A stretch of DNA of 63,829 bases, filler included, from Klebsormidium nitens (GCA_000708835.1; 7 parts of 7 records of this genome joined end to end with filler, not necessarily neighbours in it), one strand, 5' to 3'. Counted from the first letter of the whole stretch, positions 6,693 to 63,426 are shown. The notes: generated by a model not told the origin, from the sequence alone. Numbers and translations are program-made.

Positions 6693-6717
6693 GTCCCACA
6701 AATTGTCCCACTTGCAT

Positions 6718-8441
6718 CTAACCCTTCCGACCCGCTCGCTTCTTGGCCTTCGGTGTTACCCATCCCGTCTCGCCCTTCCGATCTTCTCCCGGTGGCACAC
6801 GTGTACGCTCCGGATATCGCTTGCCGTCCATCTCCGGCGACATCATCTTTTCGCTTTCAACCTTGTCCTTCCGGTTGATCCGTGCTCCCACGCGTTCTGC
6901 TGTGGTTGCTTCCACGCCTTCCGCTCCCGCTCCCACGGCTTCCGTTGCGCAGTGTTTCTCCGTCTTCTTCTCCGTTGGGGTCTCCATTTTCCCGACGCTT
7001 ACATCCACCGATTGGGTCTCCTTCACCCCGTTGTCCGACTCATCGCCCGACTCAAGGTCAACCTCAATGACCTTGACCGGCCTCACCTCCGCTTGCTTCT
7101 TCTCCACTCTCATTTCCGGCTTCGGTGCCACCTTCCCAAACCGACGCTCCGTCTTAACCGACGCCCCTTGACCGCCAAGAATGCTCTTGCCTTCTTACCT
7201 GTGCAATCTCCCACAATCCACCGTGTTGCACCGCCTCCATGCTCACCACACCTCCCATCTCAAAACGGGCAATCCCCCTTTCAAAAGAGATCCTTGCGCC
7301 CGCGTCCGTTGCTCGCCGCATTGCGAACAAGTTTATTCTCGCTTCCAGAACGTGCCAAACCTCACCTTGCCCGTTCCGTTTGGCGTCTCACACTCCAAGA
7401 CAACTTGCCCAATCCCCACCGCCGTCAAGGCTTCTCCTCCAAGCCCCTCAATCGTCTCCGTACGCGCAAGCCTCTCGTAGCTTGCAAATTGCCTCTTATC
7501 CCCGGTGATGTGTTGCGTGCTTCCCGAGTCAACAAGCCACACATCCGCCGGCAACCGCGCCTCTTTGCGCCACGCCATAAACGCCACACCGGCAAACTCC
7601 TTCCGGTCCGGGCGGTCCTCACCGCCGCCTTTTGCACCACCTCGGGGCCTACACACCGAGCTTATGTGGCCCCTCTTCCCACAATTGAAGCACTCCGCGT
7701 TCCTCTTCCAGCAATGGGCCCGGACGTGGCCCTTCTCTCTGCAACCATAGCACGTCCTCGCGTCGAGACCGCCTTCGCGCATCACCCCTCCGATAAACCT
7801 CCCCGCTCACTTGAACCCTTGGTAACGGTCTCATACCGTTCCCGGTTGGCAACAAATGCGTTCCCCATACTATTTTCCTTCTCCGGAGTTCCTAGCTTCT
7901 CTTCCAACTTCAACTTTTGCTCCTTTTGCATGAGCTGAATTGTGTCCAACGTCAACTCCTCCTCACTCAACTCTAGGACCTCAACTAGAGTTGCATACTC
8001 CTTAGGCAAACCATTCAAGGCATGGATTGCCAACTCTACCTCGGACACGGTTTGACCCGCTGTCTCCAAATCCACCTGTATCTCGCGAAACTCTCCCACA
8101 TACTCCGCAATGCTCTTCTCCCGGGTCAACGTCAAGCTTGTCAACTTCTTCCTAAGTTGGACAACCCTTGCGTTGCTTGTTTTCTCAAAGTTCTCCTCAA
8201 GCTTCTTCCAAGCTTTGGCAGCCGTGGACTCCCCAATGAACAACTTTACATAGGCATCTTGAGTGTGGAGGTTCATCAAAGCCTTTGCTTGCCCCGATGC
8301 TTTTCTTCCTTCCACCGGGTCCGGTTGCTCAATAACAACATACAACCCTTTGTACTCAAGAAGGGCTCGGAACTTGGCCCTCCATACCGACCAATTCTCA
8401 CCTCCAAGTTGCGGGATAACAATCTTGTCAATCCCCGCCAT
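6718..8441 (-). pseudogene. gag (UBN2-like) + two CCHC knuckles + aspartic protease + acidic linker; no integrase core, RT or RNase H
   Basis: LGGENWSVWRAKFRALL..KTSNARVVQLRKKL; CYGCREKGHVRAHC and CFNCGKRGHISSVC; WLVDSGSTQHITGDK; then an acidic/basic tail with RYPERTRVPPGE, resembling the IN-RT linker RYPARKRRAPG of element 1. Frameshifted. Confidence 0.88.
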
Positions 8442-8556
8442 CTCCTCTGCGGTAAGGCCTCTCTTAGCGCTAGACCCAACTTAAGCTTCACTCAAAGCTC
8501 TTCCTCTTCAACTTCACAACAACCTCATCATCCTCCTTTACCTAGAAAGCGTTGTT

Positions 8557-8570
8557 GTGGGCCCATAACC
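8557..8570 (-). promoter_or_regulatory. Primer-binding site GGTTATGGGCCCAC (half-tRNAiMet type) of element 2
   Basis: Same 14-mer as 4049-4062, abutting the LTR at 8571. Confidence 0.9.
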
Positions 8571-9099
8571 TGTTGAAATCATACGCTCATGCTTGGAATT
8601 TAAGAGGGATTCAACCACCCTCACACACAAAGCGCCTTCACAAAAGGAGCGCCCTAGCTCTCAACAAGCATCTCTTAAAATGAATGAGTTGGGTTCGAAC
8701 TTACATGTAGTCAAGTCTTATAGCCTAGCTCAAGCCTAGCATTGACCCTAGGTGTTTCAATCGACAAATCGACGGTCCGTATTCGTCGTTGCCTATAAAG
8801 AACCCATCGAACGGCTACACCAAAGTGCACATCACAAAAGAACCCTTTCACAATGGACTCAATCCTACGGCTCACATTTCGCGCATCCTACAGTGGATGT
8901 TCAATTATGCAAGCTCTCAATGGTACGGCCGACCTTATGCATCAAACCTACGCTTCCTGGACGACTCAAGCACAAGACATTGGAGCGTACTCAAGGCTAG
9001 TACCTCCCACCTCTAACATATAGCGCAAGAGGGAAACCACCGTCTATTTCCGCCTAATTCTATCACAATTTGGCCGTCAAAGAACCCCGTATCTTAACA
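8571..9099 (-). repeat. 5' LTR of element 2 (529 bp)
   Basis: Homologous to 6178-6692; flanked by the PBS on one side and the TATTA TSD on the other. Confidence 0.93.
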
Positions 9100-9339
9100 T
9101 ATTACGAGCAGTCCAAGGTAATTCCCAAGTTGCAATAGATTCTATTGTCAAAATCTCAAACTGCCACGGTGGGAGTTTTGGCTTATTCAAAATCCTTGAG
9201 TGAAATTACCGTGAATTTCGAGCTACGGCGGTCGAAAAGTGGGCCTTATTGACTTTTCAAAGCGAAATTTCGAGGCCCCGTTTTCGCGATCGATCGCGAG
9301 TCGTGGGCTATATTTTAGTGCATTGGCAGTGGCCGTCGC

Positions 9340-12300
9340 GAAAACGGCACAATGAGTGTGTTTGCGTTGTGGAAGAAGTTGGAGGACAACTTTGAAAAAA
9401 GGAGCAACGCGTGCATGATTCAACTCGGGAGAAAGCTGACGGGTCTAAGGTTGGACAAGTGGAAAGCCATTGCAGAGTACACCAAGGGGAAGACCAGGAG
9501 CTCAAGATAGATTTAGAGGCGGCAGGACAAAGCGTCTCAGAGGGTGAGCTGGCCGTGCACGCCTTGAAGGGTTTGCTGGAGGCGTATGCCACTGTTGTGG
9601 AGTTCTTGAAGCTCGGAAAAGAAGAGCTAACCCTAGCCTGAGAAACAGAGAAGAGGCAAGCAAACCCTAAGATGGCTGACGGGTTCAAAGTCCATGTAGA
9701 AGCTTGATGTAGATAACGACATCAATTGGAGTGGCAAAATCAACTTCTCGTTGACATCAAATAATCTATGAAACGGAGGGAAACATCCCGCAGCTCACGC
9801 ATCTCAATCGACGAAGGCGTTTCCATCGTACGTGATAATAATTGAGGCGTGCAAGTCAGCAAAGGAGGCTTGGGATCCCCTTGAGACGACCTACGGGAGC
9901 AAATTTGATGTACGGGAGATGCAACTCAGGCAAGAGTTGCATTCCCACAAGAGAATGTCGTGCACATGAGCCCGTGACCGTACGTGGCTCGGGCAAAGGA
10001 TTCAGTGTATGGAAATTTGACAGCACCGTTTTCGAGGTCAAGCCGGATGTGCTAGCGGGATTGCCGAGCTCGTTCAGTACCCTGAGAACAACTCTAATGG
10101 CTTCGGAAGGCGGCTTGAGCTTGGTAGATGCGAATTTGCCGAAGCTCTTGGGTGCATGAAAGGGTTTCAGCTGCCCAAGGATGCTCAGGGCGGTGGTGGG
10201 TCAGACTTCGCGGTAATTTGTGTAGCTCAGCGGAAAGGGAGCAAGAAGAAGAGCCACGGCAAGGATGAGAGCCGGGGCAAGGGCCCTAAGTGCTACAACT
10301 GCAGTGAGTTTTGTGACATTGTCCGGAAGTGCAGCAAGCCGGATATGCGGGAGCACAAGCCATAGCAAAAGAAGGGAGGTAAACATTCCAAGGGAGTGGC
10401 CTTTAGCGTGATTGAGGGGGTAGCTGCCGACGATCGGCTCGTCACTGTTGGGTAGCTCTTAGCACCTAATCGTGGACAAGAGCCTATTTGAGACCCTCGA
10501 GATGTTCGTAGGGAGTGGCCGAGAGTTCACGATTCGGGACGCCGGGAACCTTGTGGGCAGAGGGGAGCGGCTCGGTTGAGCTGTTGTGCGCGACTGCGAT
10601 GGAAGACTTTTTGGTCCTCAGATGCAGAACGTGATGTGTTCCATGAGTTGCGGCAAACCTGATTTCGGTAAGCAACCGAGGTCGCCGCCTTAATATTGTT
10701 CAAGGAGAACGGCAATTGTGGTTTGAGGTTCACGGGGAGGTAGTCCTTGGTTCGGAAAGTGATGGAATCTACGTGGTCGACCGGGTGGGGAACGCATTGA
10801 TCTCCAAAGGGGCCCGCTTTCGGAAATGCTGAGTTTAGGGCCCGCCGCGCTGCGAGAGAACGCGTGCTTCCTCGTGAGAAAGCCGGAAGCGGCCGAGCTG
10901 TGACATCAACGGATGGGGCAAGTCGGGTATGGGAACTTGGCGAAGATGATGCAAGACACCACGTGGAGGTCGGCGAGAAACCGGGGGCGTTCAGAGCGCT
11001 AGAACCTCGGTGTGTAAGCCGTGCATCATGGGGAAGCAAACGCGGCTCCCTTCCTAGAATCGTAGTCGATGAGCATGTAGCCTCTCAAGCTGGTCCACAT
11101 GGACGTTCTACGGGCCGATGCCGGTCCCCTTGGTCGGGGGGAGCCGGTACTTTGCCACGTAGAANNNNNNNNNNNNNNNNNNNNGGTCATGTAATAAACC
11201 GGTTGGAGTTGCAATCCGGGAAGAAGCTCGGGTCGGTGCGGACTGATCGGGGGAAGAGATACGTCAACAAGGCCCTCAAGAACGTGTTTGGGGGCAAGAG
11301 GACGGTGCAAGAGAAGACTGGCCCCCACATGGCCGAGCAGAACGGGTCGGCAGAGCGGCTCAATCGGCAATTGGAGAAGAAGGTCCGACGATGCTCGAGG
11401 ATTTCGAGGCTGAGGATTTCGAGGCTGCGCAAAGAGATGTGAGCAGAGGCCGTTGTGACGGCCAACTACACCCAAAACGGGACCCTGGTGAGCGCACACC
11501 GGAGGACCCCGTGGAAAATGTTTCTTGCAGAAAGCCCAACGTGGGGCACATGCGGGTGTTTGGGGCGCGCTCCTGCAGGCACGTTTTCAAGCAGAGGAGA
11601 CAGAGTTGGACGGCGTTAAGCGAGAGGTATGTGTTGAAGGGGTAAAAGCCGGACTCCAAAGCGTATTGGGTGCTCCGGAAGAGCCTACAGAAGATCATGG
11701 TCTCTCGGGACGTCATTTTTGGATTAATGCGAGGAGAACAACGGGGTTGTTGAGTTGAGCTCCGACCCCACGGAGGGTTCCACAGAGGAGGCCAACGAGC
11801 GTGACATCGCGCCTGCGACAAACCATGGCCGCGTGGCGGCACGCACGATTTCCAAAACCGACCAAAGTGGGCAACTTTTGGAAACGGTGCAAGAAAGCAG
11901 AGCAGAGCCGGAAAAGATTGTGGAGGACTTAGGGATGGATGCCAACACCGGCTGCTCAGAGTGTACTTCGCGCGTGAGAGACACACGCCAAGAAAGTGAT
12001 CTGCGCCAGCTTGGCGGCCGACACCAAAGCGGGGAAGCAACCCTTGAAAGAAACGGGGGAGCACCCAGAACCGCAGAGATATCAGGAAGCCTTTGGGAGA
12101 GAAGACAGTGACCTCTGGCGAAAGTCCATGAACGGAAAGATGCGTTCCCTATTGGAGAACGGGACTTGGGAGATCGTCGAAAAACCACAAAGGGGTCAAG
12201 ACGGTTCCCATGAAGTGTGTTTACAAGAATAAGCGGGACGCTCACGGGAACGTGGAGCGGTACAAGTCCCGGCTGGTGGCGAAGGGCTACTTGCAGATTC

Positions 12301-12430
12301 AGGCCCGGATTGATTTCGAGGAAGTCTACGCCAGGCGGTGAGCAAGCACACGAGGTTGCGTGCGCTGCTGGCGGTGGTCGCGGAGCGCTACTTGGAGTTG
12401 CCTCAGTTGAACGTCAAGACGGCGTTTCCA
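9340..12430 (+). mobile_element. Heavily degenerate Copia relic: family-2 gag fragment joined to a family-1 gag-pol, truncated in RT
   Basis: 9340-9645 matches the element-2 gag (WKKLEDNFEK.SNA..ELAVHAL). From ATG 9672 (MADGFKVHV) it matches element 1 through KCYNCSEF, HVINRLELQSGKKL..RTDRGK..QNGSAERLN and RYKSRLVAKGY. Many stops and frameshifts; no LTR found. Confidence 0.88.
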
Positions 12431-32853: not shown

Positions 32854-32893
32854 TTTTAGGGTTTCAGGGTTTTAGGGTTTCAGGGTTTTAGGG
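32854..32893 (+). repeat. Telomeric repeat tract at the scaffold end: TTTTAGGG alternating with TTTCAGGG
   Basis: Five 8-mers with the G-rich strand running 5'->3' toward the scaffold end, then the spacer. Confidence 0.8.
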
Positions 32894-34190: not shown

Positions 34191-34432
34191 TGCAGTTTGA
34201 TCAGCCCTTGGAAGCTCAGACCGTGTGCAGCTCATGAGCACCTGGAGCTGACCGGGCGTGAGCGCTGCTGAGCTGCGGACCCAACGGCTTGCTGGTTGGC
34301 TGTGCGCGTCATTAGAGCTAGGGTGATGGCCTTTGACATGCGCCTTCCCTGGCAAAGGTGAGTGCTTTTCTGAACACAACCTCGGGGCTGAGAATTGTTC
34401 AAGGGTTAAGAGATAGGCACGTTGAAAAATGC

Positions 34433-36287
34433 GCACGAACGAAGCACTCGGTAACCTGATTCAACATTGCATTCCATGATACAAACGGACTGTTCTCTTT
34501 CACGTCAGGCGGAGTGAGTTGCGAGTCTCAAGCGGAGTCGCGGATTGCGGATTGCGGCAAAAGAATTTTGTCTTTTTACACCTGGTTATGGACGTTTTAC
34601 ATAGTTGTTGCAGCTGTGATTACAGTGACTCGTCAGAGTCGGAGGATTGCCAAGGAGAGGACATCGAAGGCGTTGAATACTCTGATCGATCCGTTGATGG
34701 TTCCCAGTTTGGAGAGTCACTACAAGGTTTCTTCGACGATCATGATTCCGCCAGCAGCATGCAAAGGCCAAGCTTCTACAGGGCACTCGACAACGAGGAC
34801 AGTTTAAGCCCGGTCAAGGTTGCCCTTGGGCCCATTGGCAAGAGGAACAGGCCTCCAGTGAGTCGCATATACCGTCCCGAATCGATGATTGGCTCGATGA
34901 ATACCGTTTCCAGCATTCAATCTCAGATCGGCTTTCTCTTTGAATTGCTCTTGGGTCGAAGTGGTGCCTGCTGCTGTGACGCCACTCATGGGCTTTCTAT
35001 GCTGTACTGAACGAGTCACTTACCTTTCTAGATGCTATTTGGTCTACTGGCAGCTGTTTCAAAAGCTGGTTCTTTGACATTCTCATACCACAGTTAGCAA
35101 GACAACACTTCATGACTGGATGGCAAAAAGTTGATGCTATCAACCTTTTCTCTGCGCCTTAGTTGATTTGATTTTACTGAGGTCATGGAGTCTCTTGCAT
35201 TGCTGAGGCGCAAACTCAAGGTGTCGGACAACCCCTTCAATCCCGTCACGAATGCGTGATTGAGAATGCGTGATTGATCGATGTGACGATTACAGCTGAC
35301 CGATCCCGGTCTAGTTCTTCGTCAGGTTCTCGTTAACGGTTAGGTTAACGAAACGACAGGGGTTACGTCTTAAACGACGCTCTGTGGGCTGTCTAATCAG
35401 TCGATTTAATGTCCCGGATNNNNNNNNNNNNNNNNNNNNTGCACGAACGAAGCACTCGGTAACCTGATTCAACATTGCATTCCATGACACAAACGGACTG
35501 TACTCTTTCACGTCAGGCGGAGTGAGTTGCGAGTCTCAAGCGGGGTCGCGGATTGCGGATTGCGGCAAAAGAATTTTGTCTTTTTACACCTGGTTATGGA
35601 CGTTTTACATAGTTGTTGCAGCTGTGATTACAGTGACTCGTCAGAGTCAGAGGATTGCCAAGGAGAGGACATCGAAGGCGTTGAATACTCTGATCGATCC
35701 GTTGATGGGTCCCAGTTTGGAGAGTCACTACAAGGTTTCTTCGACGATCATGATTCCGCCAGCAGCATGCAAAGGCCAAGCTTCTACAGGGCACTCGACA
35801 ACGAGGACAGATTAAGCCCGGTCAAGGTTGCCCTTGGGCCCATTGGCAAGAGGAACAGGCCTCTAGTGAGTCGCATATACCGTCCCGAATCGATGATTGG
35901 CTCGATGAATTCCGTTTCCAGCATTCAATCTCAGATCGGCTTTCTCTTTGAATTGCTCTTGGGTCGAAGTGGTGCCTGCTGCTGTGACGCCACTCATGGG
36001 CTTTCTCTGCTGTACAGAACGAGTCACTTACCTTTCTAGATGCTATTTGGTCTACTGGCAGCTGTTTCAGAAGCTGGGTCTTTGACATTCTCATACCACA
36101 GTCAGCAAGACAACACTTCATGACTGGATGGCAAAAAGTTGATGCTATCAACCTTTTCTCTGCGCCTTAGTTGATTTGATTTTACTGAGGTCATGGAGTC
36201 TCTTGCATTGCTGAGGCGCAAACTTAAGGTGTCGAACAACCCCTTCAATCCCGTCGCAAATGCGTGATTGAGAATGCGTGATTGATC
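34433..36287. repeat. Near-identical 847-bp duplication A (34433-35279) and A' (35441-36287)
   Basis: Constant 1008-bp offset at both ends, scattered SNPs, 20-N gap between the copies. Confidence 0.92.
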
Positions 36288-36288
36288 A

Positions 36289-38324
36289 ATCATTGGCGCT
36301 GATCACCGGTGAGCTTTTTCACGCGCTCTAAATCGGTTTGTTGCGTCCTTTTCTCTCAGTCACCCGAACGGGACGATCAGTGCGGCTCAGAGTCAAATGA
36401 TGATCCGCTTGCGGAGGACGTTGGTGGGGTCGTACCAACAGGCCAAGAGCTTGAGATAAAGCGTCGTCGCAAGAATCAGAGGAGGAGACTGCATCCACAC
36501 TGCAATCACTTAAGCAGGTAAGCCGCTCGTTGGTCTGAAACGGGTAAGCTTTTGCGCCTTGCAAAATCCTTAGAAAGATAGGCTCCTTTTTCCGACAATC
36601 ATATGCTGCTTATCACAAATCGTAGAATGAGGGTATTGATGCATAGCAGGCCTAGGTTGACCCGAATTTTGCCGTTTTGCGTCATCTTCTCGAAGAGTGA
36701 ACTTGTATCAACAGTGTATACCTGTTGCACTCGCCTGATCCATCCCATGTTGTGCAGGGGCAAGGCGCTCCGAAGCAGATTGCGGCACGTGCTCAGGTTG
36801 GATGTCCAGTGGAGATTTGTAGTCCGATTGAGCAAGCCCAGGTATTATCATTGACAAGCTGCAAAGCAATTGAAATGTAGAAAGTGAGGAGTGGTCTGCC
36901 GCAATAATCCGCTGAGAGATCCGCTAGAACGGATGCGGCTCCATTGTGTAAACGTATGGTACTGCCGCATTGCATGTTGAAGTCGCTTGCAATACTTGTA
37001 CATATTTGACCCATGTTGCAACCACTGCAGCTTAGCCACCTGTTTACTCCCTTTGTACTATCCTCGGCACTCGGCAAATCTATATGCATTTCTAGCCCGT
37101 TTCATCAGAATCTTGTGATGAATCAACGCTGTCTTTGAAACATGCGCTCGTAATCTTCTCAAGATGTTAGCCGCTTTCCGATCCTACAATCAAAGCAAAG
37201 GGTTGATTTCTCAGCCAAGATCTTGTCGAAATAAGAGATGCGAGTCGAAGCGGAAGCCGAAATTGAGCTTGTGGATGCCGANNNNNNNNNNNNNNNNNNN
37301 NTCGTTACAATCGATCATTGGCGCTGATCATCGGTGAGCTTTTTTCACGCGCTCTAAATCGGTTTGTTGCGTCCTTTTCTCTCAGTCACCCGAACGGGAA
37401 GATCAGTGCGGCTCAGAGTCAAAAGATGATCCGCTTGCGGAGGACGTTGGTGGGGTCGTACCAATAGGCCAAGAGCTTGAGATAAAGCATCGTCACGTAA
37501 TTCTTTCGCAAGAATCAGAGGAGGAGACTGCATCCACACTGCAATCACTTAAGCAGGTAAGCCGCTCGTTGGTCTGAAACGGGTAAGTCTTTGCGCCTTG
37601 CACAATCCTTAGAAAGATATGCTCCTTTTTCCGACAATCATGTGCTGCTTATCACAAATCGTAGAATGAGGGTATTGATGCATAGCAGGCCTAGGTTGAC
37701 CCGAATTCTGCCGTCTTGCGTCATTTTCTCGAAGAGTGAGCTTGTAATAAAAGTGTATACCTGTTGCGCTCGCCTGATCCATCCCATGTTGTGCAGGGGC
37801 AAGGCGCTCCGAAGCCGATTGCGGCACGTGCTCAGGTTGGATGTCCAGTGGAGATTTGTAGTCCGATTGAGCAAGCCCAGGTATAATTATTGACAAGCTG
37901 CAAAGCAATTGAAATGTAGAAAGTGAGGAGTGGTCTGCCGCAATAATCCGCTGAGAGATCCGCTAGAACGGATGCGGCTCCATTGTATAAACGTATGGTA
38001 CTGCCGCATTGCATATTGAAGTCGCTTGCAATACTTGTACATATTTGACCCATGTTGCAACCACTGCAGCTTAGCCATCTGTTTACTCCCTTTGTACTAT
38101 CCTCGGCACTCGGCAAATCTATATGCATTTCTAGCCCGTCTCGCTAGAATCTTGTGATGAATCAACACTGTCTTTGAAACATGCGCCCGTAATCTTCTCA
38201 AGATGTTAGCCGCTTTCCGATACTACTACAATCAAAACAAAAGGGTTGATATTTCAGCCAAGATCTTGTCGAAATAAGAGATGCGAGTCGAAGCGGAAGC
38301 CGAAATTGAGCTTGTGGATGCCGA
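36289..38324. repeat. Near-identical duplication of about 1 kb, B (36289-37281) and B' (37314-38324)
   Basis: Co-linear copies with SNPs and small indels, separated by a 20-N gap. Confidence 0.92.
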
Positions 38325-38689
38325 TCGGAGGGGTTCGAAGCCCGCTCTCCGAGTCTCCGTGGACCAACTCGAGACAATGCAAGCAATCAGGTGCCCGCCT
38401 CTAACACGCCAGACTTTGCAAGCAAGCTGCTCGAAGCGAGCGTGCATAAACTGCTATCCTTCTTTCGGATCTAACAAACTGAGGTACTACCGTTAAAAGT
38501 CGCCGCCATCTTTCTAAAATATGATAGGCGACTTTTGACTGACCCATTTACCAAAGGGATGTGTTGCAACGCTCCGACAACCCGAACAAGGTTGCGAGAG
38601 GGGAAAGACCTTGCTTGCAAGATCAAAGTCTTAGCAGAGCGCTGGCATGTAGCCCTTCTAGCAATCCTTTAGTGGAAGTATTGCCTTTC

Positions 38690-39430
38690 GAACATCCGGC
38701 CCACCGCAGTCAAAACGGCCCTCCCTCTCTCTAGAAAATGATGGGCGCCTTTTGACTGGACTCTCTCGAACATCCGGCCTGCCGCAGTCGAAGAACGGGC
38801 CGGAGTCTGAACGGCCATCCCTTCTTCTAAGAAATGATGGGCGCCTTTTGACTGGNNNNNNNNNNNNNNNNNNNNNNNNNNNNNNNNNNNNNNNNNNNNN
38901 NNNNNNNNNNNNNNNNNNNNNNNNNNNNNNNNNNNNNNNNNNNNNNNNNNNNNNNNNNNNNNNNNNNNNNNNNNNNNNNNNNNNNNNNNNNNNNNNNNNN
39001 NNNNNNNNNNNNNNNNNNNNNNNNNNNNNNNNNNNNNNNNNNNNNNNNNNNNNNNNNNNNNNNNNNNNNNNNNNNNNNNNNNNNNNNNNNNNNNNNNNNN
39101 NNNNNNNNNNNNNNNNNNNNNNNNNNNNNNNNNNNNNNNNNNNNNNNNNNNNNNNNNNNNNNNNNNNNNNNNNNNNNNNNNNNNNNNNNNNNNNNNNNNN
39201 NNNNNNNNNNNNNNNNNNNNNNNNCCTTTCTTCTTCTAAACAATGAGGGTCGCCTTTTGACTGGCCTCTCTCGAACATCCGGCCTGCCGCGATCAGAAAA
39301 AGGGCCGGAGTCAGAACGGCCCTCCTTTCTTCTAGGAAACGATGGGCGCCTTTTGACTGGCCCCTCTCGAGCATCCGGCCCGCCGCAGTCAAAACGGCCC
39401 TCCCTTTCTCTAGAACATGATGGGCGCCGA
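38690..39430. repeat. Tandem array of 96/78-bp units, each containing an inverted pair TTTTGACTG..CAGTCAAAA
   Basis: ATGGGCGCC-type anchor at 38741, 38837, about 39246 (degenerate), 39342 and 39420; the array spans the N gap 38856-39224. Confidence 0.88.
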
Positions 39431-39764
39431 TTGACCGATTGGCCCCCGTGGATCTATGACGCCCTCACTTGGAGTACGGCACTCGATTCATGAACGGCAC
39501 TCGAAGTAGAAGGCATTGTGCTTTCATTTGTGGGCAGCCTTTTACAAAGTCGAACCTGAATAAGCTTATCCGCCCACAATTGGAAGCAACATGAAGGTCC
39601 CGCTCAGAAACGAACTTGTTTGAGCTTACACGTGTTTCCGCAAGCTAAAGGCTCATTCTTAATCTACTCTGAGAACCGCTCGAAAACGGCGCAGAAGTAT
39701 GGAACAGTGAGGAATTTGTGGCTTTTGTCTTTATGAGGTGCCCTCCGAGGTGGACGAGTGAGGT

Positions 39765-42700
39765 CAGACATGGTACTTCCGGTTTGCACCTGCACAAGCC
39801 GCGTTCCAGGAGACCTCGATGCCACCGGGGGCTTTCATTGCGTCACAAGACGTCAACGCCGGCGGGTCCAAGATGTATAGTGCGTTCAAGAGCACACAAG
39901 CCTTCGAGGAATACACTGCAAGGATGGCCGCCGACTGCCGAACGCCGCACTTGTACGAGATCCTGCTCGCTTCAGAGGCTTCTTGGCTCTACTCGGACCT
40001 CGACTACACGTTGCGTGCCAACGATCCACAGGAGTTTCTCGAGAGGCGCCAGCATCTCCACCACCTCTTCGAGCACTTCTGCACCCATATCATGCAGCTT
40101 CCTCCTGGTCTACTCCAGCCCCCTGAAGTTGCTGCATCCCATGGAGCCCTTTCCCACGGTCTTTACAAGTGCAGCGTTCACGAGGTTTGGAAGGGAGTCT
40201 ACTTCTCGGATCTGGAGGCGCGTACTGAATTCAAAACGGCCTTCAGCCACTTCTTGGACCACCCTCCGGCGGAGCTGGCACGCAGCGCGGAGTTCATTGG
40301 ATACATGAAGCCCGACAGCGGGTTGAAGAGAGAAAAGATCTGGGATGATTCCGTTTCTCGAGGAACCGAAACTGGCGCACCCTCCGCTCAAGCAAACTCG
40401 GAAGCACGCGCATCCTCTGCCCGGACAAGAGTAGCTCAGAGCATGTCTCCGACCACCTCATCGGTGTTCGCGAATAGCAAGAACTGGCGCGCGCGCACAA
40501 GATCGACGTCCGACCGCTGCAAGAGTACAACGCAGCGGCAGGAGTGGGTGGCGCATCGAGTGGCGCGGCGCATGGCCGTGTCAGCGATCGACAGATCCCC
40601 GTACGATATTCCTTCAAGCAGCATGAACCACTGAAACGGGACATCGGCCCGGAGGAGAGAGCGCGCCTGCTCAGGTGCTGTCAGCAGGATCATCCCGGGG
40701 CTACGCTATGGCGGATCGAGCAACTATGCTCAGGGGTTTTTTGCGTCCACATCTGCAGCCCTCCGGAAAGTCGGACCTGTTGCATTGCAGGGCGAACGCA
40801 TACCAGCGAGGGCAACGGGCAGTATCTCGTCTACCGTCGGCGACGACCAGCCGAGGCGGCCTACAAATGCTTCTCACCTAACTGCCAGTGAGTTTATGAG
40901 CGGTTCTCGTTTCTACACCAGCCTGGTCTGGCTTTTCACAAGCTCCACAGATCATAGCAATCAAGCCAGAACCTCATACGCGACGTCTCCGTGTTCGAAC
41001 AACATGCCGCAAGAAGGGAAAGGAAAAACGAAAAGCAGGGCGCCCGAACGAAGGCCGACCTCTTCGTTGCTGTCTTGTCAACAAGCTGATTCAGTCAAAA
41101 AGCGACCCCTTCTCTCTTTAATAAAGACCAATCCCTTTTGACTGTGGGCTCGTTGATTGAATGTAGCCTCGCCCATTATAAAGTCGAGATTGCGTCCTCG
41201 TCTTTGTTGCCTCGCCACCAGATTGCCACGTCATGCGGTTAGTCAGAAACGACCTCGATTCATGATGGAACCGGACCACGTCGTGAAAACTGGCTATGTA
41301 GATTCAACGTCGTGCTTATTTGGATGCAGAGGCATCGAGCGTCTCTGCTCTCTTGAGAGGTCCCTCTGCTGGACCGAAGAGTACTCGCTGCCGAGTGAAA
41401 TGCGACCCTACCCCACGGTCAAGATCCACCCGGAAACTCTGCGGACGCTCCTGGTGAGAGCGAACAAGGGGGTCGGGAAGTCGAAGGCCGGTTCTACCTA
41501 TCTAGTGGAGATGCTCGGGAAGAACCCATCTGCCAGTTGTGTCGTCATCGCTAGCAACGTGGCGCTGGCTGACAAGCACCTGGAGGAGCTTCATCGAGCG
41601 GGGCTGACGGACTTCGTGCTCTACTCCGATGTCGAGCCTTGGGCTATTGAAGACGAGAGGGTCGTCATCTGCATCAGCTCCATGCCCCGACTGAGCTCCC
41701 TTGACAAAGACATCGTCTACATGGACGAGATGGACGTGACCCTGGGCAATCTGACTCCGACGTCATGAGGGACCGCAAATCGGTGTTTATGGCTCTGCAC
41801 GCAATGCTCCGGGTTGCACGCATCGTTGTGGGGCTAGATGCGAATGTGGACAGTCCGCGCGTAACCGAGTGGCTTCAAGCGGTCCGCCCAAACACTCTGA
41901 TACACGCCATTTGGAACACGGGAGCTCGCGAGTCGGAGCGGACAGCTACTATTTGGCCTATGCCCTCCTCGGGGAAGCTGGAGGCCCGGTTTGCTCCGAT
42001 CATTAACCAGATTCTCGACGAGGTGGAGGCTGGACAGAACATTTGGGTGAGTTTTGTTAGCCGTGATTCTGATGGCCGTTGATTCTACCAGCGGTCATTG
42101 CAGCCGTAGTTCGAAGCGTCCGCGATGTACCTCCAGCTTGTCGGCAACCATGAACGATTGTATGCAATGAAATATTGGTTGTGATAAAGAGAATTGGACT
42201 GGTGTCTGCTTGAAAGTTGGTGATGCTTGTGCTTGACTGGCTCCTTATGAGAGGCCTAGGATTGATGCCTTAGGTGACTCCCCTCTATCTCTTGATCTGA
42301 TGGTCGACATACCTTATGAAATTTGCAGGTCTCCTCGACGAGCAGAACCTTCATTGCGCAACTCGAGAGGGCATTTGGTGCAATGTTCACTGGCACGGAC
42401 AAGACTCTCACCTTTCACGGCGGAAAAACCTCAGCAGAGGACAAAGAGCAGCTCCGACATGCAGTGACTGACTCAGACCGCTACATGGTGGTCCACTGTC
42501 TGGGATACTCTTCGACCATAGGGCCGGGAGTCTCGCAAGAGGCTTAACACTACCACCGGGGCATGGGGATCGCGCTGAACCGCCCAAACGACGGTCCTGA
42601 TCTTTTCACCTTCAACCAGATGTTACAGCGGGTGCGAGATGGGGGAGATATCGACATCTACTACATGAAAAGCCCAGCGCCGAAGTCCGTACCCTCCACC

Positions 42701-43363
42701 AAAGAGGACGTGTTTAGAGCAATCGAACGACAAGACGCCGAGTTGCACGCTCTAGTGAAACCCTCTGCGGTGCTTGACTTCTTGGAGAGGCCGGGCAAGC
42801 TGCCCATCTGCGATTGAGAGTCTGCAACCTGCAATATCTATGCCAACAATATTCTGGCAAGGTACCAGAGCATCACAAACTACGTTGGCATCTTGACAAA
42901 GGATCTCGAACAGCAGGGCTTTGGAGTGGTGAACAGATTGGCGGAGCCGCTGGATAAAGCCAACGACCTTAGCGAGGCGAATGATATCCTTCCCACGAAG
43001 GACTGCCTGAAGGTTCGCGACCAAGCCAAGCACTGCGTCGTGTTTGCATACCGCCTGCTGGCTGAGATGCTCCAGATCGACCCCAAGGATTTCGACCGTC
43101 TGCAACTCGGAGCTTCTTACCACGTGTCTGAGAAGAACCTCCAAGCTGCTTACTCCAAACTGATCGAGTCAAACCTCTACACAGCAAAGCTTCGATACGA
43201 GATAAAGCAGAAGGTGAAAAAAGACGAGAACGGCCAGCTGAAGATGACGGAGGCATTGAACCGCAACGTGGTTAAGTCAATCCTCGAGAAGGGTTTAGGG
43301 CTGAAGTTCGTGAAGGTGGCGGGGAAAAAGAGCAACAACAAGTTCGTGAAGGGGCACGCTTAG
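39765..43363 (+). pseudogene. PrimPol-type archaeo-eukaryotic primase + UL52-type Zn finger fused to a herpes UL9 / origin-binding-protein-like SF2 helicase; spliced and decayed
   Basis: AEP motifs LYSDLD, KCSVH, and WDDSV(Y)SRNRNWR (restored by 1 nt at about 40356); Zn finger CCIAGRTH..YKCFSPNC; helicase LLVRANKGVGKS, VICISSMPRL, VYMDEMD, VGLDAN, YSSTIGPGVS, QMLQRVR. Intron 42047-42328 is in frame, with a probable donor at 40888. Lesions at about 40356, 40475, about 41754, 42545 and 42815. Confidence 0.8.
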
Positions 43364-43891
43364 CGCAGGTCCGGAGCTCTGGAAAGAGGTGCACGCTACA
43401 TACGGACCCGTAGTCTAGAAGCGTAAAGATTCATACCGTTATCAAGACTTGTAATCAAGTACGAGATAACATGCTGCTACATGTGGATATCTTTCAAGTA
43501 ATCTTGTACAGTACCATCCAATCAAACAACCGCACAGTAACATCGAAGACCTGATTAATTCCCCCCCAATAGCGCTTGTTATAAGCGCCGTTAGTGATAG
43601 CCTATGCTTGTGATCCGAGTCGATACATCTTGACAAATACACGTCGCCAAGTAAAGAGACACATGAATGGCGGATCCAGATTGTGATATGTCGGATGTTC
43701 GTAGTTGCATTTCCGCCGACTGTTGGGTGCGTTTGCGGAGACTCATCAATCGCGGCCTTGACCCGTGAGCTACGATTGAAAAAGCTTTATGCACCGCGGA
43801 CATGCTGCAGATGCCTTGTTTTCAAGTAGAAGAAGCATGCGTTGAGTCATGTTGTCTTTTCTGCAATAACGGATTGCAATTAAATCAGAAC

Positions 43892-44306
43892 CGCCCTACT
43901 CTTTGATATAAAGAAGGAGGCGACTTTTGATTGAACGCCCCCCGTTTCAGCTCATGTGTCTCCAAGACGGTGGAAGTGCAGTCTGATCATAAACCATCAT
44001 CCAAGACTCAAGAAGTTACTGCAAAGGTGCTGCAGACATTTTCGAACCTAACACAAAATGTGTTCCACCTCCGCATGCACCTCTGCGGCCTCTGTCGCTC
44101 CTTGATCTGCGTCCAAAGCAGGAGCTCTCTTTCTCACGGACAAACACGTGAGATGATCTCAGTCAAAATCGCCCTACTATTTGATATAAAGGAGGAGGCG
44201 ACTTTTGACCGAACGCCCCGCGTTTGAGCTCATGTGGCTCCAAGACTGTGGAGGTGCAATCTGCCAGTGATCATAAAGCATCATCCAGGACTCAAGAAGT
44301 TACTGC
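43892..44306. repeat. Direct repeat of about 135 bp (43892-44022 and 44170-44306) carrying GGCGACTTTTGA(T/C)
   Basis: CGCCCTACT.TTTGATATAAAG..GGAGGCGACTTTTGA..GAACGCCCC..AAGAAGTTACTGC is present twice. Confidence 0.85.
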
Positions 44307-44390
44307 GAAGAGCTTTTTGACCAAAACGCCACAGCAAACCCTCTCCAGCCAACAATAGGTCTTTCCGAGCATCTGCATCGAGGAGAGCCG

Positions 44391-45434
44391 CTTGATCGTG
44401 GGAGGGGACTTTTCGATGGAGCCATCATTCGCAAGGTCGACCGGCCCCTTCCTGGGATCAGCGCCGTCGACCTGATTGTCATCACGTGTGGCGATACGTA
44501 CAGACCGCTGTCCATCTTGTCTAACCTGCGCTTCGATCTTGGAGAGGGCGGTGACGATCTGGATCTCGAGGTTCACTGCTTTGACGGTCATAAGAAGAGC
44601 ACGCTCTTCCATGCTAGCAAGTTCGACCAGATAGTCACCCTCCTCGATGGCGCAAGGGCGGTAGACCTCCGCCCTGAGTGCGCGGGGCTCGTGGCCGATT
44701 TCTTCGGGATCGAGGGCCCTAAGGTCGTGGATGAATTCAAGCACCTGATAATCCATGGGGAAGGCCTGGGTGAGGGCATGTGGATTAGGAGGACGAGCGA
44801 AACCCCACCGAGAGTGAGCGTCGTGGACGTCATCCACGGCGTGACCGAAGTTCTCAATCGACACAAAGTATGGGACGATTATAGAATTGCAGCATCCTGA
44901 AGTCCGTCCAAATTGAACGGACCTCCGGCAGTTGTATTCCCGAGATACAACTACCAATTTGAGGGAACTGGCCAGCGCCCAACATCGGTCACCTGTGCAC
45001 GAGGCCTCGGGACCATCATCAATCTCCTGCCGGGCAAGAGGGCTGCTCAGTTCCGCCTCAAATGCGCCGACGTCGTCGTGCGTTATTTTGGTGGGGACGA
45101 GACCCTCGTGGGAGAGATCAGGCTCAACAGGGAGGCGCAGAGTCAGCTGCCAAAGGAGCATCCATCCCGCGTCTTCGGCGAGATCGTGGAGGCCGAGGGC
45201 AAGAAGGCGGATCCCGAGGAGCTCGACCTGATGAAGAAGATCAAGAGGCAGAAGCTCGAGACCGAGCGACAGAAGTTGGAGAACAAGCGAGAGAGGTTGG
45301 AGAATGAGCTGGCAGCCGAGAATGTGACGTTTGGGCTATGGTTAAGTGTAACCACTCAAACCCACAAATCTAAACGACGCTCACCCATTCAATGGGTACG
45401 CGACGCGTGTCAATCTAAGTCCACTATCAATTAG
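44391..45434 (+). pseudogene. Protein with two tandem Bro-N/KilA-N-like viral-type DNA-binding domains plus a coiled-coil tail; one in-frame stop
   Basis: Repeat 1: IIRKVDRPLPGISAVDLI..QIVTLLDGARAVDLRPECAGLVADFFG. Repeat 2: WIRRTSETPPRVSVVDVI..YQFEGTGQRPT..TIINLLPGKRAAQFRLKCADVVVRYFGGDETL. TGA at 44898-44900 with the same frame on both sides. Confidence 0.65.
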
Positions 45435-45447
45435 TGACACGTGGCAT

Positions 45448-52939: not shown

Positions 52940-53900
52940 TGGTACAAGCTCGGAATGCTCGAAGAGTGGGCGCTGTTCATGAGCTTTGCCCACGCTGCTA
53001 CGGATCCTGTGGATTATTTGATGACTTACCAGCCCTGTTCCCATCCATGGCCGCTTTGGCACCCGCTCGCAAGCCCGGCAAGCGCGCGATGTGCACGGGG
53101 CGCTCTCCGTCACCAGGTCGACCAGAGCCTGCACGTTCTTTGGGAGGCCCGCCCGCATCGCCAGGAACTCGTCTGGAGTGAGGGGTGCATTGCTGCAGCC
53201 CTTGGGCGCCTTCCTGAAGTTGCACCACCGCATGGCGGCCGCACGCACCGCCGGCGTGAGCTCCGATAGGCCGTTGCGGTACTTCCACTCGCAGTCGATG
53301 AGCTCCCTCGGAGCATGGGTCGGCTACAACCCTCCCACGCTCAACGGGGTAAAGCCGCCACCCACCGTGGGAGCCCCCGGGCCTAGCTCCGTGATGCTGT
53401 GGAGGCCACTCTCCCTGGCGTCCCGCATGGCGCTTGCGTTGGGGAAGAAAGTTCCATCGAACGTGATCACCTTGTCCGGGCCGAAAGCGTAAGTCTCCAA
53501 CTGGTCCGCATCACCCTTGGTCCGCTCCCGTGCGAGAGGCATGCCTCCTTCTCGAGCAGCCGCCTCGGCTGCTAGCACCTCCGAAGTGTACAGGTGCGAG
53601 CAATCCGGCCGCTTGCACGCATGCTGAATGGGCCTGGCCGCCAGGTCGTTGAAGGCCCTCATGGCGGAGTCAAAGACCCTATCATCCAGGCGGGGCGCTC
53701 CGGGCCCGTCCAAGCTGGCCGCAGCCATATCGTTTGCGTCGAAGCCCAGGGTGTGAGAGGCACCCAGGGCGGCCGCAAAGTGGTTGCGCAGCAGAAGGCC
53801 GTGGGAGATGAGATTGGTGCCGGAGAAGTTAAAGATCCCATCCTCCTGCATGTGGCGCGTACTAGCGTCAGCAAAGTTTCCGCATTAGAATGCACACGAG

Positions 53901-58064: not shown

Positions 58065-59725
58065 CTGCCAGCAGCCATTCGGCCCCGCACATTCGCTTGT
58101 GATTGATGGCGTCAACGTGTCCAAGTGTCCGACTTTTTGATGAACGTTTTCAGGTCGACCCCCTTGGATGACGTCAGCAGCCATTCCCCGCACTTCCGCT
58201 TGTGATTGATGGCGCGAAGGTGTCCGAGTGTCCAAGTTTTTGACGCACGTTCTTAGGTCGATCCCCTTTGATGACGTCAGCAGCCATTCCCCGCACTTTT
58301 GCTTGTGACTGATGGCGCGAAGGTGTTTGAGTGTCCGAAGTTTTGACGCACGTTTTTAACTTAGTAAGTCGACCCCCTTTGATGACGTCAGCGACCATTC
58401 TCTGCACTTTTTTATTTGTGACTGATGGTGCGAAGGTGTCCAAGCGTCCGAGTTTTTCAAGAGCGTTTTGAGGTCGACCCCCTTGGATGACGTCAGCAGC
58501 CATTCCCTGCACTTTCGTCTGCGATTGATGGCGCGATTGTGTCGGAGTGTTCGAGCTTTCGAGGATCCTTTTGAGGTGGACCCCCTTTGATGACGTCAGC
58601 AGCCGTTCCCTGCACTTTTCGTTTGTGATTGATGGCGCGAACGTGTCCAAGTGTCCGAATTCTTCATGATCCTTTTGAGGTGGACCCCCTTTGATGACGT
58701 CAGCAGCCATTTCCTGCAATTTTCGCTTGTAATTGATGGCGCGAANNNNNNNNNNNNNNNNNNNNNNNNNNNNNNNNNNNNNNNNNNNNNNNNNNNNNNN
58801 NNNNNNNNNNNNNNNNNNNNNNNNNNNNNNNNNNNNNNNNNNNNNNNNNNNNNNNNNNNNNNNNNNNNNNNNNNNNNNNNNNNNNNNNNNNNNNNNNNNN
58901 NNNNNNNNNNNNNNNNNNNNNNNNNNNNNNNNNNNNNNNNNNNNNNNNNNNNNNNNNNNNNNNNNNNNNNNNNNNNNNNNNNNNNNNNNNNNNNNNNNNN
59001 NNNNNNNNNNNNNNNNNNNNNNNNNNNNNNNNNNNNNNNNNNNNNNNNNNNNNNNNNNNNNNNNNNNNNNNNNNNNNNNNNNNNNNNNNNNNNNNNNNNN
59101 NNNNNNNNNNNNNNNNNNNNNNNNNNNNNNNNNNNNNNNNNNNNNNNNNNNNNNNNNNNNNNNNNNNNNNNACCTTCTGTGTATCCTTTCAGAATGTATG
59201 TCCTAGGCTGAGCCTAGGACATATAGATTCTGATCAAACCTCTTTGATGATCGTGTCAGCAGCCATTCTCTGCATTTTTGCCTTGATTGATGGCGCGAAC
59301 GTGTCCAAGTGTCCAAGTTTTTGATGAAGGTTCTTAGGTCCACCCCCTTGGATGACGTCAGCGGCTATTCCCTGCACTTTCGCGTGTGATTGATGGCGCG
59401 AACGTGTCCAAGTGTCCGAGTTTTTGATGAAGGTTCTCGGATCCACCCCCTTGGATGACGTCAGCAGCCATTCCCTGCATTTTCGCCTGTGATTGATGAC
59501 GCAAACGTGTTCAAATGTCCGAGTTCTTGGTGAGCGTTCTGAGATCGACCCCTTCGGATGACATCAGCAGCCATTTTCCGCACTTCCGCCTGTGATTGAT
59601 GGTGCGAAGGTGTCCGAGTGTCTGAGTTTTTGATGAACGTTTTTAAGTCGACCCTTCTGATGACGTCAGCAAAACTTCCACCAATATTCCACTGTGACTG
59701 ATGGTGCGAACGTGTCTGAGTGCCC
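58065..59725 (+). repeat. Satellite array with a unit of about 103 bp (left arm), spanning the N gap 58746-59171
   Basis: GATGAC(G/A)TC anchor at 58167, 58270, 58381, 58486, 58589, 58693 and 59351, 59454, 59557, 59659. Confidence 0.93.
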
Positions 59726-59933
59726 CAGTTTCCTGCTCGCCTTTCCCGTCGTTGCTTTGGAATGACGTTACCATCCCCGACCCGTTTATCTGCTGCAACA
59801 AATGATCATGCTCTTTATGCTCTGATTGATGGAAACTAAGTTATTCATCATGAATCCTTTAAAACAGAAGGCTACTCAAGTCTTGAATCCAATTGAGAAG
59901 ACTCACGTGCTTTTCGTCCCGTTCCCCATGCAG

Positions 59934-60790
59934 GGAATGGCAAGGGGGTCTGCAAGCAGATGCTGAAGACCACGCTGGGCAAATACTACGGCGTCATGTC
60001 CAAGGACGCCGTGGTCAAGGCCCCCGGACAACGCCCGCCGGTCAAGGGCGCTGCCACGCGCTACCTCTCCGAGCTCCAGGGGAAACGGGTGGCCGTGACG
60101 GACGAGACGAGCCCGGGCGAGCACGTCGACCTGGGGGACGTGCTCAAGATGACCGGCGGGGGCATGGTCGCCTCCCGGCTCCTCTTCCAGAACAACGTCT
60201 CCTTCCGATTCACCCACACGCCCTTCATCCAGACCAACTACGACCCCGAAATCCCCCCAAAACTGGCCAAGCAGCCAAACATCAACCGCCGCCTCATCGT
60301 GGTTTGCTCCTCAAACGAGTACGTGTCCGAGAACAAGTTTGACGAGACCAACCCGAACCACAGGCACGTGGACATCGGGTTGAAGGACCGGATGGAGAGT
60401 CTGGCGGTCCGCGAGGAGTTCCTCACGTTCCTCGTGCAGGGAAGTCGGGCCTGGTACGAGGACCCCACGGTCTTGCGCAGGCATCCGCCGGCCGTCCAGG
60501 CGGCCTCGATGGCATGGCTGCGGCGCGAAGACAAGCTGCAGATCTTCTTGCAGTCGGAGCACTGCGTGCACGACCCGCCGGAGACGCTCGACAATGCCAA
60601 GAAGGTCACATGCCGGGAGGACGAGTTCTGGACGCAGTTCCAGAGATTCACAGGGGTCAAAATTGCCAAGGAGGAGTTGGCTAGGCAGATGCGAGAGAAG
60701 GGTTTCGCAAGAACGAAGCGAGCCGGGCGTTATGACGGGTCATCCCAGCGGAGCTCGTGCTATGTAGGATTCAAGTGCGAGTACGATTGA
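59934..60790 (+). CDS. Terminal exon of a D5 / P4-family SF3 helicase (primase-helicase C-terminal half with winged-helix end)
   Basis: Begins at a pyrimidine-rich CAG acceptor in mid Walker A (GNGKG); Walker B VAVTDET; LKMTGG; motif C FIQTN; RRLIVV; C-terminal DKLQIFL..YVGFK. The frame is intact to the stop. Confidence 0.85.
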
Positions 60791-61089
60791 TGATTGACGC
60801 CCGCCTATGGAGTCCATTTTCTTTGTTGTAAAATCTTGCTTCAATGGTCAGAGCGCAGGACATGTACAAATAGCCCACGGAATAACGGAGTAAAGTAGAA
60901 GCAAAGGCAACCGTAGGCTAGGCCTACGGTTGCACAAACAAGGAAAAGATAAAATTAAACAAATGTCAAAACAAGTCCAAAGGTATTCGTGAATTCTTTT
61001 GAAGGCTGCTGAAGAAGCGAAGTAGCATACATGCATAACATAGCATGTGTCATCAACCATCTATCTACCCAACGTTCCACTGGACATTT

Positions 61090-61535
61090 GATATCTTTGC
61101 GCCATTGACGACAGTGCATAATTGGTAGTATGGTTGCTGACGTCATCAAGCATGCTCAATCTCAAAAGGTGCTCCAAGAACTCGGACACTCGAACACCTT
61201 TGCGCTGTCGATTACAATGGTTCATTGGTGGCATGGTTGCTGACGTCATCTAGCATGCTCAATCTCGAAAGGTGTTCCAAGAACTCGGACACTCGGACAC
61301 CTTCGCGCCATTGATTACAGCGGATCATTGGTGGCATGATTGCTGACGTCATCAAGCATACTCAATCTCAAAAGGTGTTCCAAGAACTCGGACACTCGGA
61401 CACCTTCGCGCCAGTGATTACAGTGGATTATTGGCGGCATGGTTGCTAACGTCATTAAGCATGCTCGATCTCAAAAGGTGCTCCAAGAACTCGGACACTC
61501 GGACACCTTCGCGCCATTGATTACAGTGGATTATA
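61090..61535 (-). repeat. Satellite array with a 103-bp unit (right arm), homologous to but inverted relative to 58065-59725; cut by the scaffold end
   Basis: T(G/A)ACGTCA at 61138, 61241, 61344 and 61447; ACTCGGACACTCGGACACCTTCGCGCCA is the reverse complement of the left-arm TGGCGCGAAGGTGTCCGAGTGTCCGAGT-type core. Confidence 0.9.
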
Positions 61536-62205: not shown

Positions 62206-63426
62206 TTAAGCACTTACCCTGCCAAGTTCCTGTCCAGTCTCTTCGAGAATCTTCACAAAGGCCGACAGTCCCGACCCCGGCATGTGCTCCTGCGTCTTGT
62301 CCCAGTGCTTCAGCATTGCAACACTATACAGCGTTACTACCTTCGTCACTGTCCCCACCCAGTATCCGAGCTGCAACGCCTCAGCCCCATCTTGAACCTG
62401 AATGCAGGGGCAGTTCTCCGTCTGACACTTAAAGGCAGCTTTTTGGAAGTCGAACCTCCCCTCAAGAGTGACGACCGCCCACTTCTCAGAGACTGCTTGT
62501 GCTGGACCCCAAGCTGTCTGCTTGCAGTGCGCACAGGGGCGCAGGGGCGGTTGAGCAAAACACTTGCCTACGTTGATCAGCTGGCCATTGACAACAGCTT
62601 GGGTGGGGCTGAGGGGAGACCAAAAGCCTTCTGCTTTTAGTATGGAGCGGTGGTGGAAATGAGCATAGGGGTGATAGCTCTCATCACACTCAGCGCAGAT
62701 TGCGCGGCCCCCTGTGCACTCCTGACATCGCAGTATGCCGACACCTTGGCACCCCTGAGAGGTGCACGCCGACTCTCCTTCCATAGGAATAGCCTCTTGC
62801 CGGAGCAACTCTGCCGCAATCGATGGGCGGCCCTCCACGTAAGCCCGGTACTCCCTTTCAGTCCGGACTGCCCAGTCGCGCTCCGCCTCACCCTCGTCAG
62901 CCTCCTCCTCAAACCACTGAGGCACCGAAGCTGCCCCTGGTCCCCCAGCAGTGCCAGCACAACGTGCGCCATCATCGTTTCTGTGGTTGCCCCCTCCCTG
63001 ATCATCTACCCTGCCGCCCACCTGATCACCCCCTCTTTCTTCGCCAGCCCCACCTCTTTGGGTTTGACTCCGATCCTGCGCCGGAGGCGCACTCTTGCTC
63101 TGCGCCTTCCTCCTCCTTGCTGACCTTGGGGCTGCGCTACGGACTGGCACGCCATCAGCGAACACCCGTTCTCGGCCATCATAGGATGCGCTGCGCTCGC
63201 TTGCGGAAGAGGCAGCCCCTGAGCCTGAGATGCTCCGGCTCGCTGTCCGCCCCGAGCTTTGTCTGCTCTGCAAGTCCTCACTCTCCTCTTCATTCTGAAG
63301 AGGCACATCATCATGCTTCCTTTTGCTGGGAAGGTGGGTTGGCGGGGACTGCTCAGCAGAGGAAGAGGATACAGCTGGGCTTTTAAGATCAGAAAGCTGC
63401 TCTTCTGAACTCTCTGATGAGTCCAT
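62206..63426 (-). mobile_element. Exon of a Zisupton-like KDZ transposase carrying the CxC3 cysteine cluster
   Basis: Disordered N-terminus, then C..C..LRCQEC..CAECDESYHPYAHFHHR..FWSPLSP, CAHC, VVTLEGRFDF..FKC..C, LGYWVGT..TLYS, PGSGLSAFVKILE..GR; GTAAGT donor after 62218. Confidence 0.7.

Follow-up and report, generated by a model that had tools for sequence, protein, structure and literature searches.

A decayed primase–UL9-like helicase gene with introns and candidate origin palindromes in the alga Klebsormidium nitens

A locus of the alga Klebsormidium nitens joins a primase to a helicase of the herpesvirus origin-binding type, which raises the question of what kind of DNA carries such a gene in a eukaryotic nucleus: a mobile element with its own replication enzymes, the remains of viruses or a host gene. 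The window, the whole 63,829-nucleotide stretch analysed here, consists of contigs chained by 100-nt spacers (N44, a 12-nt word and N44). The fusion locus is carried on a 12.4-kb contig (32994–45447), and genes past the spacers are unlinked to it. This contig is truncated, as it is bounded by an assembly spacer on the left and by a high-copy repeat on the right. The preceding contig ends in five copies of the telomere-type octamer TTTTAGGG (32854–32893). Several decayed pieces of copia-type LTR retrotransposons were recognized by motif in translations of both strands at 678–12413.

The fusion of a primase, a zinc finger and a UL9-like helicase is real. The AEP catalytic motifs I–III, the C-H-C-C zinc finger and the SF2 motifs of the preliminary description were found again in the window copy, and all six of the primase-bearing relatives examined retain the primase motifs and the zinc ligands. 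The Pfam family Herpes_ori_bp matches window positions 41157–41765 with an E-value of 6.5e-11 and the K. nitens protein P0002 with an E-value of 3e-17. Herpes_UL52 matches positions 40478–40888 weakly, with an E-value of 0.0098 that is below the family cut-off. A profile of 39 family sequences matched six sequences of solved structures, four from UL9 (E ~1e-44) and two from PrimPol (E ~3e-11; human PrimPol, 2.7e-11), and single family members matched PrimPol weakly (E 0.01–0.07). The sequence similarity to UL9 detected by the family profile is limited to UL9 residues 84–417.

An AlphaFold model of the relative P0009, which contains the helicase and the C-terminus, has a pLDDT of 83, and its top-ranked structure is HSV-1 UL9. 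The model aligns to UL9 residues 36–814 with a Z score of 24.7 over 564 aligned residues and an rmsd of 14.2. The next structure after UL9 aligns only with the core (Z 19.4), and the matches of other helicases mostly end at the core. According to the accessible text of PMC12543377, the DNA-binding domain of UL9 comprises residues 536–851. In the model, aligned as a whole, the fold match of P0009 thus reaches into the DNA-binding domain of UL9, and the high rmsd shows that the domains are oriented differently in the two proteins. An earlier fold of the relative P0013 (pLDDT 54) was too poor beyond the helicase core. The UL9-like assignment of the helicase therefore holds both by sequence, with the family profile, and by fold, with the P0009 model. 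The viral models that best match P0009 are giant-virus proteins, and the first named comes from Pyramimonas orientalis virus, a green-algal virus. Among the 50 matches listed, Catovirus has at least four paralogues, Bodo saltans virus at least three and Pyramimonas orientalis virus at least two. The Atlas neighbours of P0002 residues 130–970 comprise mostly viral clusters (Nucleocytoviricota), mostly eukaryotic clusters (most commonly Mucoromycota) and Preplasmiviricota clusters, with scores of 0.95–0.98.

The gene model of the window copy is built on comparison with its K. nitens relatives (Table 1). In a tblastn search, KFL_003120135 (P0002, 1237 aa) aligns collinearly with the locus over 39741–43412, and the long segments are 54–67% identical. 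P0001 (383 aa), which is 83–89% identical to the window copy, contains the primase and the zinc finger in a single frame. A single reading path with one intron had been proposed for the whole gene, and this path fails at 40886–41330, where the three frames contain 2, 4 or 9 stops. Because stops occur in all three frames across this region, a further intron is required upstream of the one proposed (intron 1 in Table 1), and read-through of 40888–41329 without an intron was rejected for the same reason. The originally proposed intron was recovered with its length and splice ends (intron 2). The G+C contents of introns 1 and 2 are 49% and 47%, respectively, versus 59% and 58% for exons 1 and 2.

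Table 1. Features of the fusion locus and its surroundings in the 12.4-kb contig (window coordinates)
Feature	Position	Strand	Basis or remark
Multicopy upstream region with two tandem near-duplicates and splice-like signals	34330..38433	+	Likely spliced accessory gene, predicted; no informative Pfam match
Array of imperfect 48-bp palindromes upstream of the gene, interrupted by a gap of 369 N	38492..39438	.	Candidate origin
Exon 1, from the start of similarity: PrimPol-type AEP primase (motifs I, II and III) and C-H-C-C zinc finger	39741..40887	+	tblastn with P0002 (55%) and P0001 (83–89%); motifs
Intron 1, 442 nt, GTGAGT...TGCAG, with one palindrome copy inside	40888..41329	+	Splice ends, stops and ends of relatives at the site; predicted for this copy
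Palindrome copy within intron 1	41094..41142	.	Strict pattern; upstream profile E 1.5–1.9 only
Exon 2: N-terminal lobe of the UL9-like SF2 helicase, Walker A and B	41330..42046	+	Pfam PF02399, E 6.5e-11
Intron 2, 282 nt, phase 0, GTGAGT...TGCAG	42047..42328	+	Splice ends; ends of relatives at the site
Exon 3: helicase C-lobe and UL9-like C-terminal domain	42329..43418	+	Comparison with P0002; fold of the relative P0009 versus UL9
Two downstream palindromes (43885 and 44162) opening a 148-nt duplication (86% identical)	43885..44310	.	Upstream profile E 0.004–0.025
Broken gene cut off by the high-copy repeat; stop at 44898, two repeats that look similar by eye	44277..45322	+	Sibling contigs cover parts
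First part of a high-copy repeat (opens with TG; probable LTR end) that interrupts the element	45323..45447	.	Summed contig depth ~2000; loose ends at 45323

The window copy of the primase–helicase gene is dead, with at least eight lesions. Stops occur at 39759 and 40475 in exon 1 and at 42545 and 42815 in exon 3, and the reading frame is shifted near 40356 (exon 1), 41753 (exon 2) and 43360 (exon 3). In addition, residues 968–1084 of KFL_003120135 are unmatched in the window, which corresponds to a deletion of ~117 codons near 42950. Reading past the frameshift near 43360 reaches a stop at 43416–43418. Two frameshifts (near 40356 and 41753) and three stops (40475, 42545 and 42815) had been repaired in the preliminary description, and these repairs stand; the stop at 39759, the frameshift at ~43360 and the ~117-codon deletion had been missed.

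The window copy belongs to a divergent family. At least four annotated paralogues are present in K. nitens (KFL_003120135, KFL_005100080, KFL_011070010 and KFL_005960040), with pairwise identities of 33–61%. In a quick tree of the helicase lobe, for which 45 rows were kept and 16 short or non-helicase rows were left out, the window copy, the four named paralogues and 14 unnamed proteins form a group of 19 rows with an SH-aLRT value of 95. R8 and pF1055L sequences were absent from the tree. The group contains at least four subfamilies with identities of 30–40% between them. Three viral-contig proteins lie outside the group, for which no sister group was supported. In P0044, the gene model KFL_011070010, residues 30–46 form an N-terminal stretch that ends in NPGP and that we take to resemble a 2A-type ribosome-skipping peptide.

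The positions of the two introns were compared across 32 relatives aligned to P0002. The intron 2 site is reached from upstream by 21 relatives. Sixteen end there (15 by alignment end, plus P0007), nearly all after a V, as the donor site would encode, and five, comprising three K. nitens gene models and two unnamed proteins, run through. The intron 1 site is reached from upstream by seven relatives, of which four end at the site and three (two gene models and one unnamed protein) run through; three of the four that end there are just 34–38% identical to P0002. Five relatives begin at the intron 1 site and one (P0057) at the intron 2 site. Both sites recur in subfamilies that are ~35–45% identical. 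Since the sites are common to such distant subfamilies, introns 1 and 2 are likely, on this sequence comparison, to be older than the radiation of the family.

Additional copies of the locus are present in the DNA sample that matches the window. In this sample, sibling contigs of ~90% identity show 52 differences in 474 positions upstream, 63 in 652 in intron 1 and 53 in 448 at the 3' end, and contig joints indicate further copies in that sample. A 10% difference is too large for alleles in a haploid alga. We infer that the ~90% pieces, found on separate contigs, represent one co-linear sibling. With several copies in the same DNA sample and four named paralogues, the signs of multicopy status noted earlier are borne out, and the gene is not single-copy. 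Many family members are broken or partial, and the evidence for dispersal is confined to the four named paralogues, found on contigs that differ in length. Exact short-pattern scans, a weak form of search, found no Klebsormidium family loci in viral contigs, metagenome contigs or prokaryote genomes. Contamination by free virus was considered as a source of the sequence and rejected on account of the introns, the LTR-like insertion and the K. nitens paralogues. In run X5, 328 C>T and 194 G>A differences occur over 39226–45447, a bisulfite-like pattern, and the raw data could give the methylation of the element.

Primase and helicase are parts of one gene product. Both are contained in one polypeptide in P0002. 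In runs X6, X9 and X13 from three studies, whose RNA status is a guess of the tool, a 3.6–3.7-kb contig links window positions 40011 and 41460, which are 1013 nt apart in it, and the 1013-nt spacing is exactly the coding spacing of P0002. The possibility that the two halves are separate transcripts is contradicted by this RNA-type contig, which carries both in a paralogue, and separate primase and helicase genes were rejected on the same ground. A DNA contig in run X1 also has the 1013 spacing, so that this paralogue lacks intron 1 already at the DNA level. The RNA-type join therefore demonstrates the fusion and not splicing. Among the RNA-type contigs of X6, X9 and X13, none is at least 95% identical to the window copy, which is not a sign of silence. 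KFL_003120135, which occurs in RNA-type runs of all three studies, is intact and keeps all catalytic motifs, and domestication or reverse transcription may account for this copy. Window positions 39942–40011 are also matched by a second expressed relative, which is shorter. The introns had been thought to imply residence in a nuclear genome. Introns do show nuclear transcription, and this part of the claim stands, but they cannot tell a mobile element from a virus that replicates in the nucleus.

The hairpin repeats described at the flanks of the gene are present on both sides of it. They form a family of palindromes of 48–49 bp, each consisting of inverted boxes around a spacer of 60–75% AT. 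The upstream array contains five full palindromes (38492, 38709, 38805, 39310 and 39388) and a half copy (39230) at the 369-N gap. A profile built from the upstream copies alone detects the two downstream copies, gives a poor E-value for the intron copy (Table 1) and matches nothing else at E <0.05 elsewhere in the 64-kb window. A strict pattern, chosen after the copies had been seen, gives three matches in the window (upstream, intron and downstream) versus none in 100 shuffles. A looser pattern gives seven matches, five in the element and two elsewhere, versus a shuffle mean of 2.18, so that the information comes from the strict pattern and the profile alone. A 17-mer of the palindrome has no matches in viral contigs. 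In HSV-1 oriS, as presented in the accessible text of PMC12543377, two inverted boxes surround an AT-rich spacer, and the span from Box 1 to Box 2, counted from the sequence given there, is 49 bp. By analogy, the K. nitens palindromes resemble herpes oriS in layout and are candidate origins.

The 12.4-kb contig as a whole is gene-poor: it holds only two or three genes besides long non-coding stretches, which sets it apart from a giant-virus genome. The tandem near-duplicates of ~1 kb at 34433–36290 (98%) and 36285–38324 (95%) are each split by a 20-N gap and are likely near-identical copies set side by side by the assembler. The broken gene downstream of the fusion was presumed to be Bro-N-like, a label that its parts did not confirm: its two halves have no Bro-N or KilA-N match in Pfam or PHROGs, and its first repeat has no Atlas hit at 0.9 or above. 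The contig end falls inside the high-copy repeat that cuts off this gene. Around the fusion gene, 61 short ORFs have no informative Pfam match. No capsid, polymerase, A32 ATPase, VLTF3, integrase, recombinase, transposase or nuclease was found in the ORFs scanned of the truncated 12.4-kb contig, and a check for a giant-virus insertion likewise found no giant-virus core gene in it. For an HUH endonuclease, the contig, whose ends are unseen, gave no match beyond one 58-aa piece with an E-value of 0.045 to Gemini_AL1_M, which was taken as chance. An inverted-repeat scan found no element ends, and no target-site duplication was seen.

Other contigs of the window contain further pieces of replication and transposition genes. 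At 58069–61531, a piece of a D5/P4-type SF3 primase–helicase (59897–60787; PHROG DNA primase, E 2e-24) is flanked by two oppositely oriented 103-bp repeat arrays, forming a second replicon-like module. Cysteine clusters associated with KDZ transposases are found on unlinked contigs at 62209–63426 on the minus strand (CxC3, E 1.3e-18) and, weakly, at 53330–53884 on the minus strand (CxC4, E 0.32).

There is an even chance, in our judgement, that the locus is the replication module, or replicon, of a virus-derived family of mobile DNA in Klebsormidium nuclei. By analogy with HSV-1 UL9 on oriS, the UL9-like C-terminal domain would bind as dimers to the pair of inverted boxes, the SF2 motor would open the AT-richer spacer and the PrimPol domain would prime. 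Host polymerases would extend and complete the copy, so that the element would be copied either episomally or by over-replication in situ. Insertion would perhaps depend on host repair, or on a recombinase or transposase that is unlinked or absent from the assembly.

The main rival to a mobile replicon is a set of remnants of viruses that pass through the nucleus and have spliceosomal introns, either giant viruses or mriyavirus-like viruses, that integrated many times. The palindromes would then be viral origins, and the capsid genes would lie past the contig ends. The same protein architecture is found on a 548-kb contig together with giant-virus capsid and B-family polymerase genes, and the best structural matches are giant-virus proteins, led by one from a green-algal virus. 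The diversity of the family could on its own come from viruses, because giant viruses also hold several paralogues. K. flaccidum/nitens has viral regions with giant-virus core genes, including capsid and ATPase genes, according to the accessible text of PMC5294986, and mriyaviruses carry the fusion without a polymerase, according to that of 10.1101/2024.02.29.582850. The viral reading has a substantial, although minority, chance of being correct. Against it stand the low gene density and the lack of any viral core gene in the 12.4 kb, the placement of the three viral-contig proteins outside the 19-row group of the window copy, and the ~90% sibling and 95–98% upstream copies, which point to copying within the genome.

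Two further explanations were considered. It is unlikely that the family consists of host genes with a single viral origin that serve DNA repair or repriming, in which case the locus would be a pseudogene that segmental duplication has spread, next to a local repeat, the palindromes, unrelated to it. KFL_003120135, with its conserved catalytic motifs and its 3.6–3.7-kb contig in RNA-type runs of three studies, fits such an origin, and the co-linear similarity of the flanks fits segmental duplication too. However, many family members are broken or partial, the window copy has at least eight lesions, and palindromes flank the gene on either side and occur in its intron, with nothing at E <0.05 for their profile in the rest of the window. 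The host-gene explanation may hold for KFL_003120135 alone. It is very improbable that the gene travels as cargo in another transposon, such as one of KDZ or Helitron type, and has no role in its copying: KDZ-type genes do occur in neighbouring contigs, but these are unlinked, no transposase piece was found in the contig of the fusion, and the retention of catalytic motifs across subfamilies fits selection on the enzyme.

The mobile-replicon reading can be extended to a wider proposal, which we put forward tentatively and with the balance of probability against it. Capsidless, nucleus-resident replicons composed of a PrimPol–UL9 fusion and oriS-like palindromes would have existed for a long time in streptophyte algae, where they would have gained introns, split into at least four subfamilies and donated an expressed host gene, and they would have counterparts in fungi. 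A herpes-style origin system would thus run a eukaryotic mobile element. In the literature searched, no defined binding site was found for a fusion of the R8/pF1055L type, and these fusions are known from sequence. The locus provides a cognate protein family together with a candidate origin, which makes herpes-like initiation outside herpesviruses directly testable. If the element is capsidless, it would represent a new replication strategy for eukaryotic mobile DNA and a route from viral replication genes to spliced, expressed host genes in a sister lineage of land plants.

Polintons, Polinton-like viruses and Helitrons are eukaryotic mobile DNA with their own replication enzymes. Their hallmarks are a protein-primed PolB of Polinton type, an integrase and a capsid, or, in Helitrons, an HUH Rep and a PIF1 helicase. 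Unlike in these elements, such hallmark enzymes were not found in the 12.4-kb contig. The locus resembles the endogenous giant-virus elements of Klebsormidium and other protists, as described in the accessible texts of PMC5294986 and PMC11244446, in that a virus-type replication gene lies decayed in a nuclear genome near virus-like pieces. Those elements are described there as gene-rich, mostly intron-poor and equipped with core genes, whereas the present contig is gene-poor and contains introns, and the fusion is the only core gene that it shows.

On the fusion, the preliminary description was overstated. Fusions of an AEP with an SF2 helicase are already described for mimivirus R8, ASFV pF1055L, ostreid herpesvirus 1 and some mriyaviruses in the accessible text of 10.1101/2024.02.29.582850, so that the primase–UL9 architecture itself is known. 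Like R8, pF1055L, the ostreid herpesvirus 1 protein and the mriyavirus SF2_hel, the K. nitens protein combines a UL9-related SF2 helicase with an AEP at the N-terminus whose motifs are intact. Unlike these viral proteins, it is encoded by a gene with two spliceosomal-type introns that is present in many nuclear copies in one alga. Mriyaviruses also have an HUH endonuclease and a capsid in a genome of 35–45 kb (10.1101/2024.02.29.582850, accessible text), and neither gene is linked to the fusion in the contig seen. A search of largely open-access literature found no account of a nuclear family of this kind that is spliced, multicopy and accompanied by palindromes. The locus therefore apparently represents a known protein architecture in a nuclear setting that has not been described previously.

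With human PrimPol (5l2x and 7jk1), the K. nitens protein shares the AEP clade, as indicated by the profile match, and the UL52-type zinc finger, and it differs in its helicase, which PrimPol does not contain. With HSV-1 UL9 (9hgi and 9hgj), it shares the SF2 helicase and, in the P0009 model, a structurally matching C-terminal domain. The K. nitens protein adds a primase domain to this arrangement, and UL9 is without one. At the DNA level, the K. nitens sites, like oriS, have two inverted boxes ~49 bp apart around an AT-richer spacer. Unlike in oriS, the spacer is less AT-rich, the box sequences are different, and the sites are repeated and dispersed, a layout closer to that of baculovirus hr repeats.
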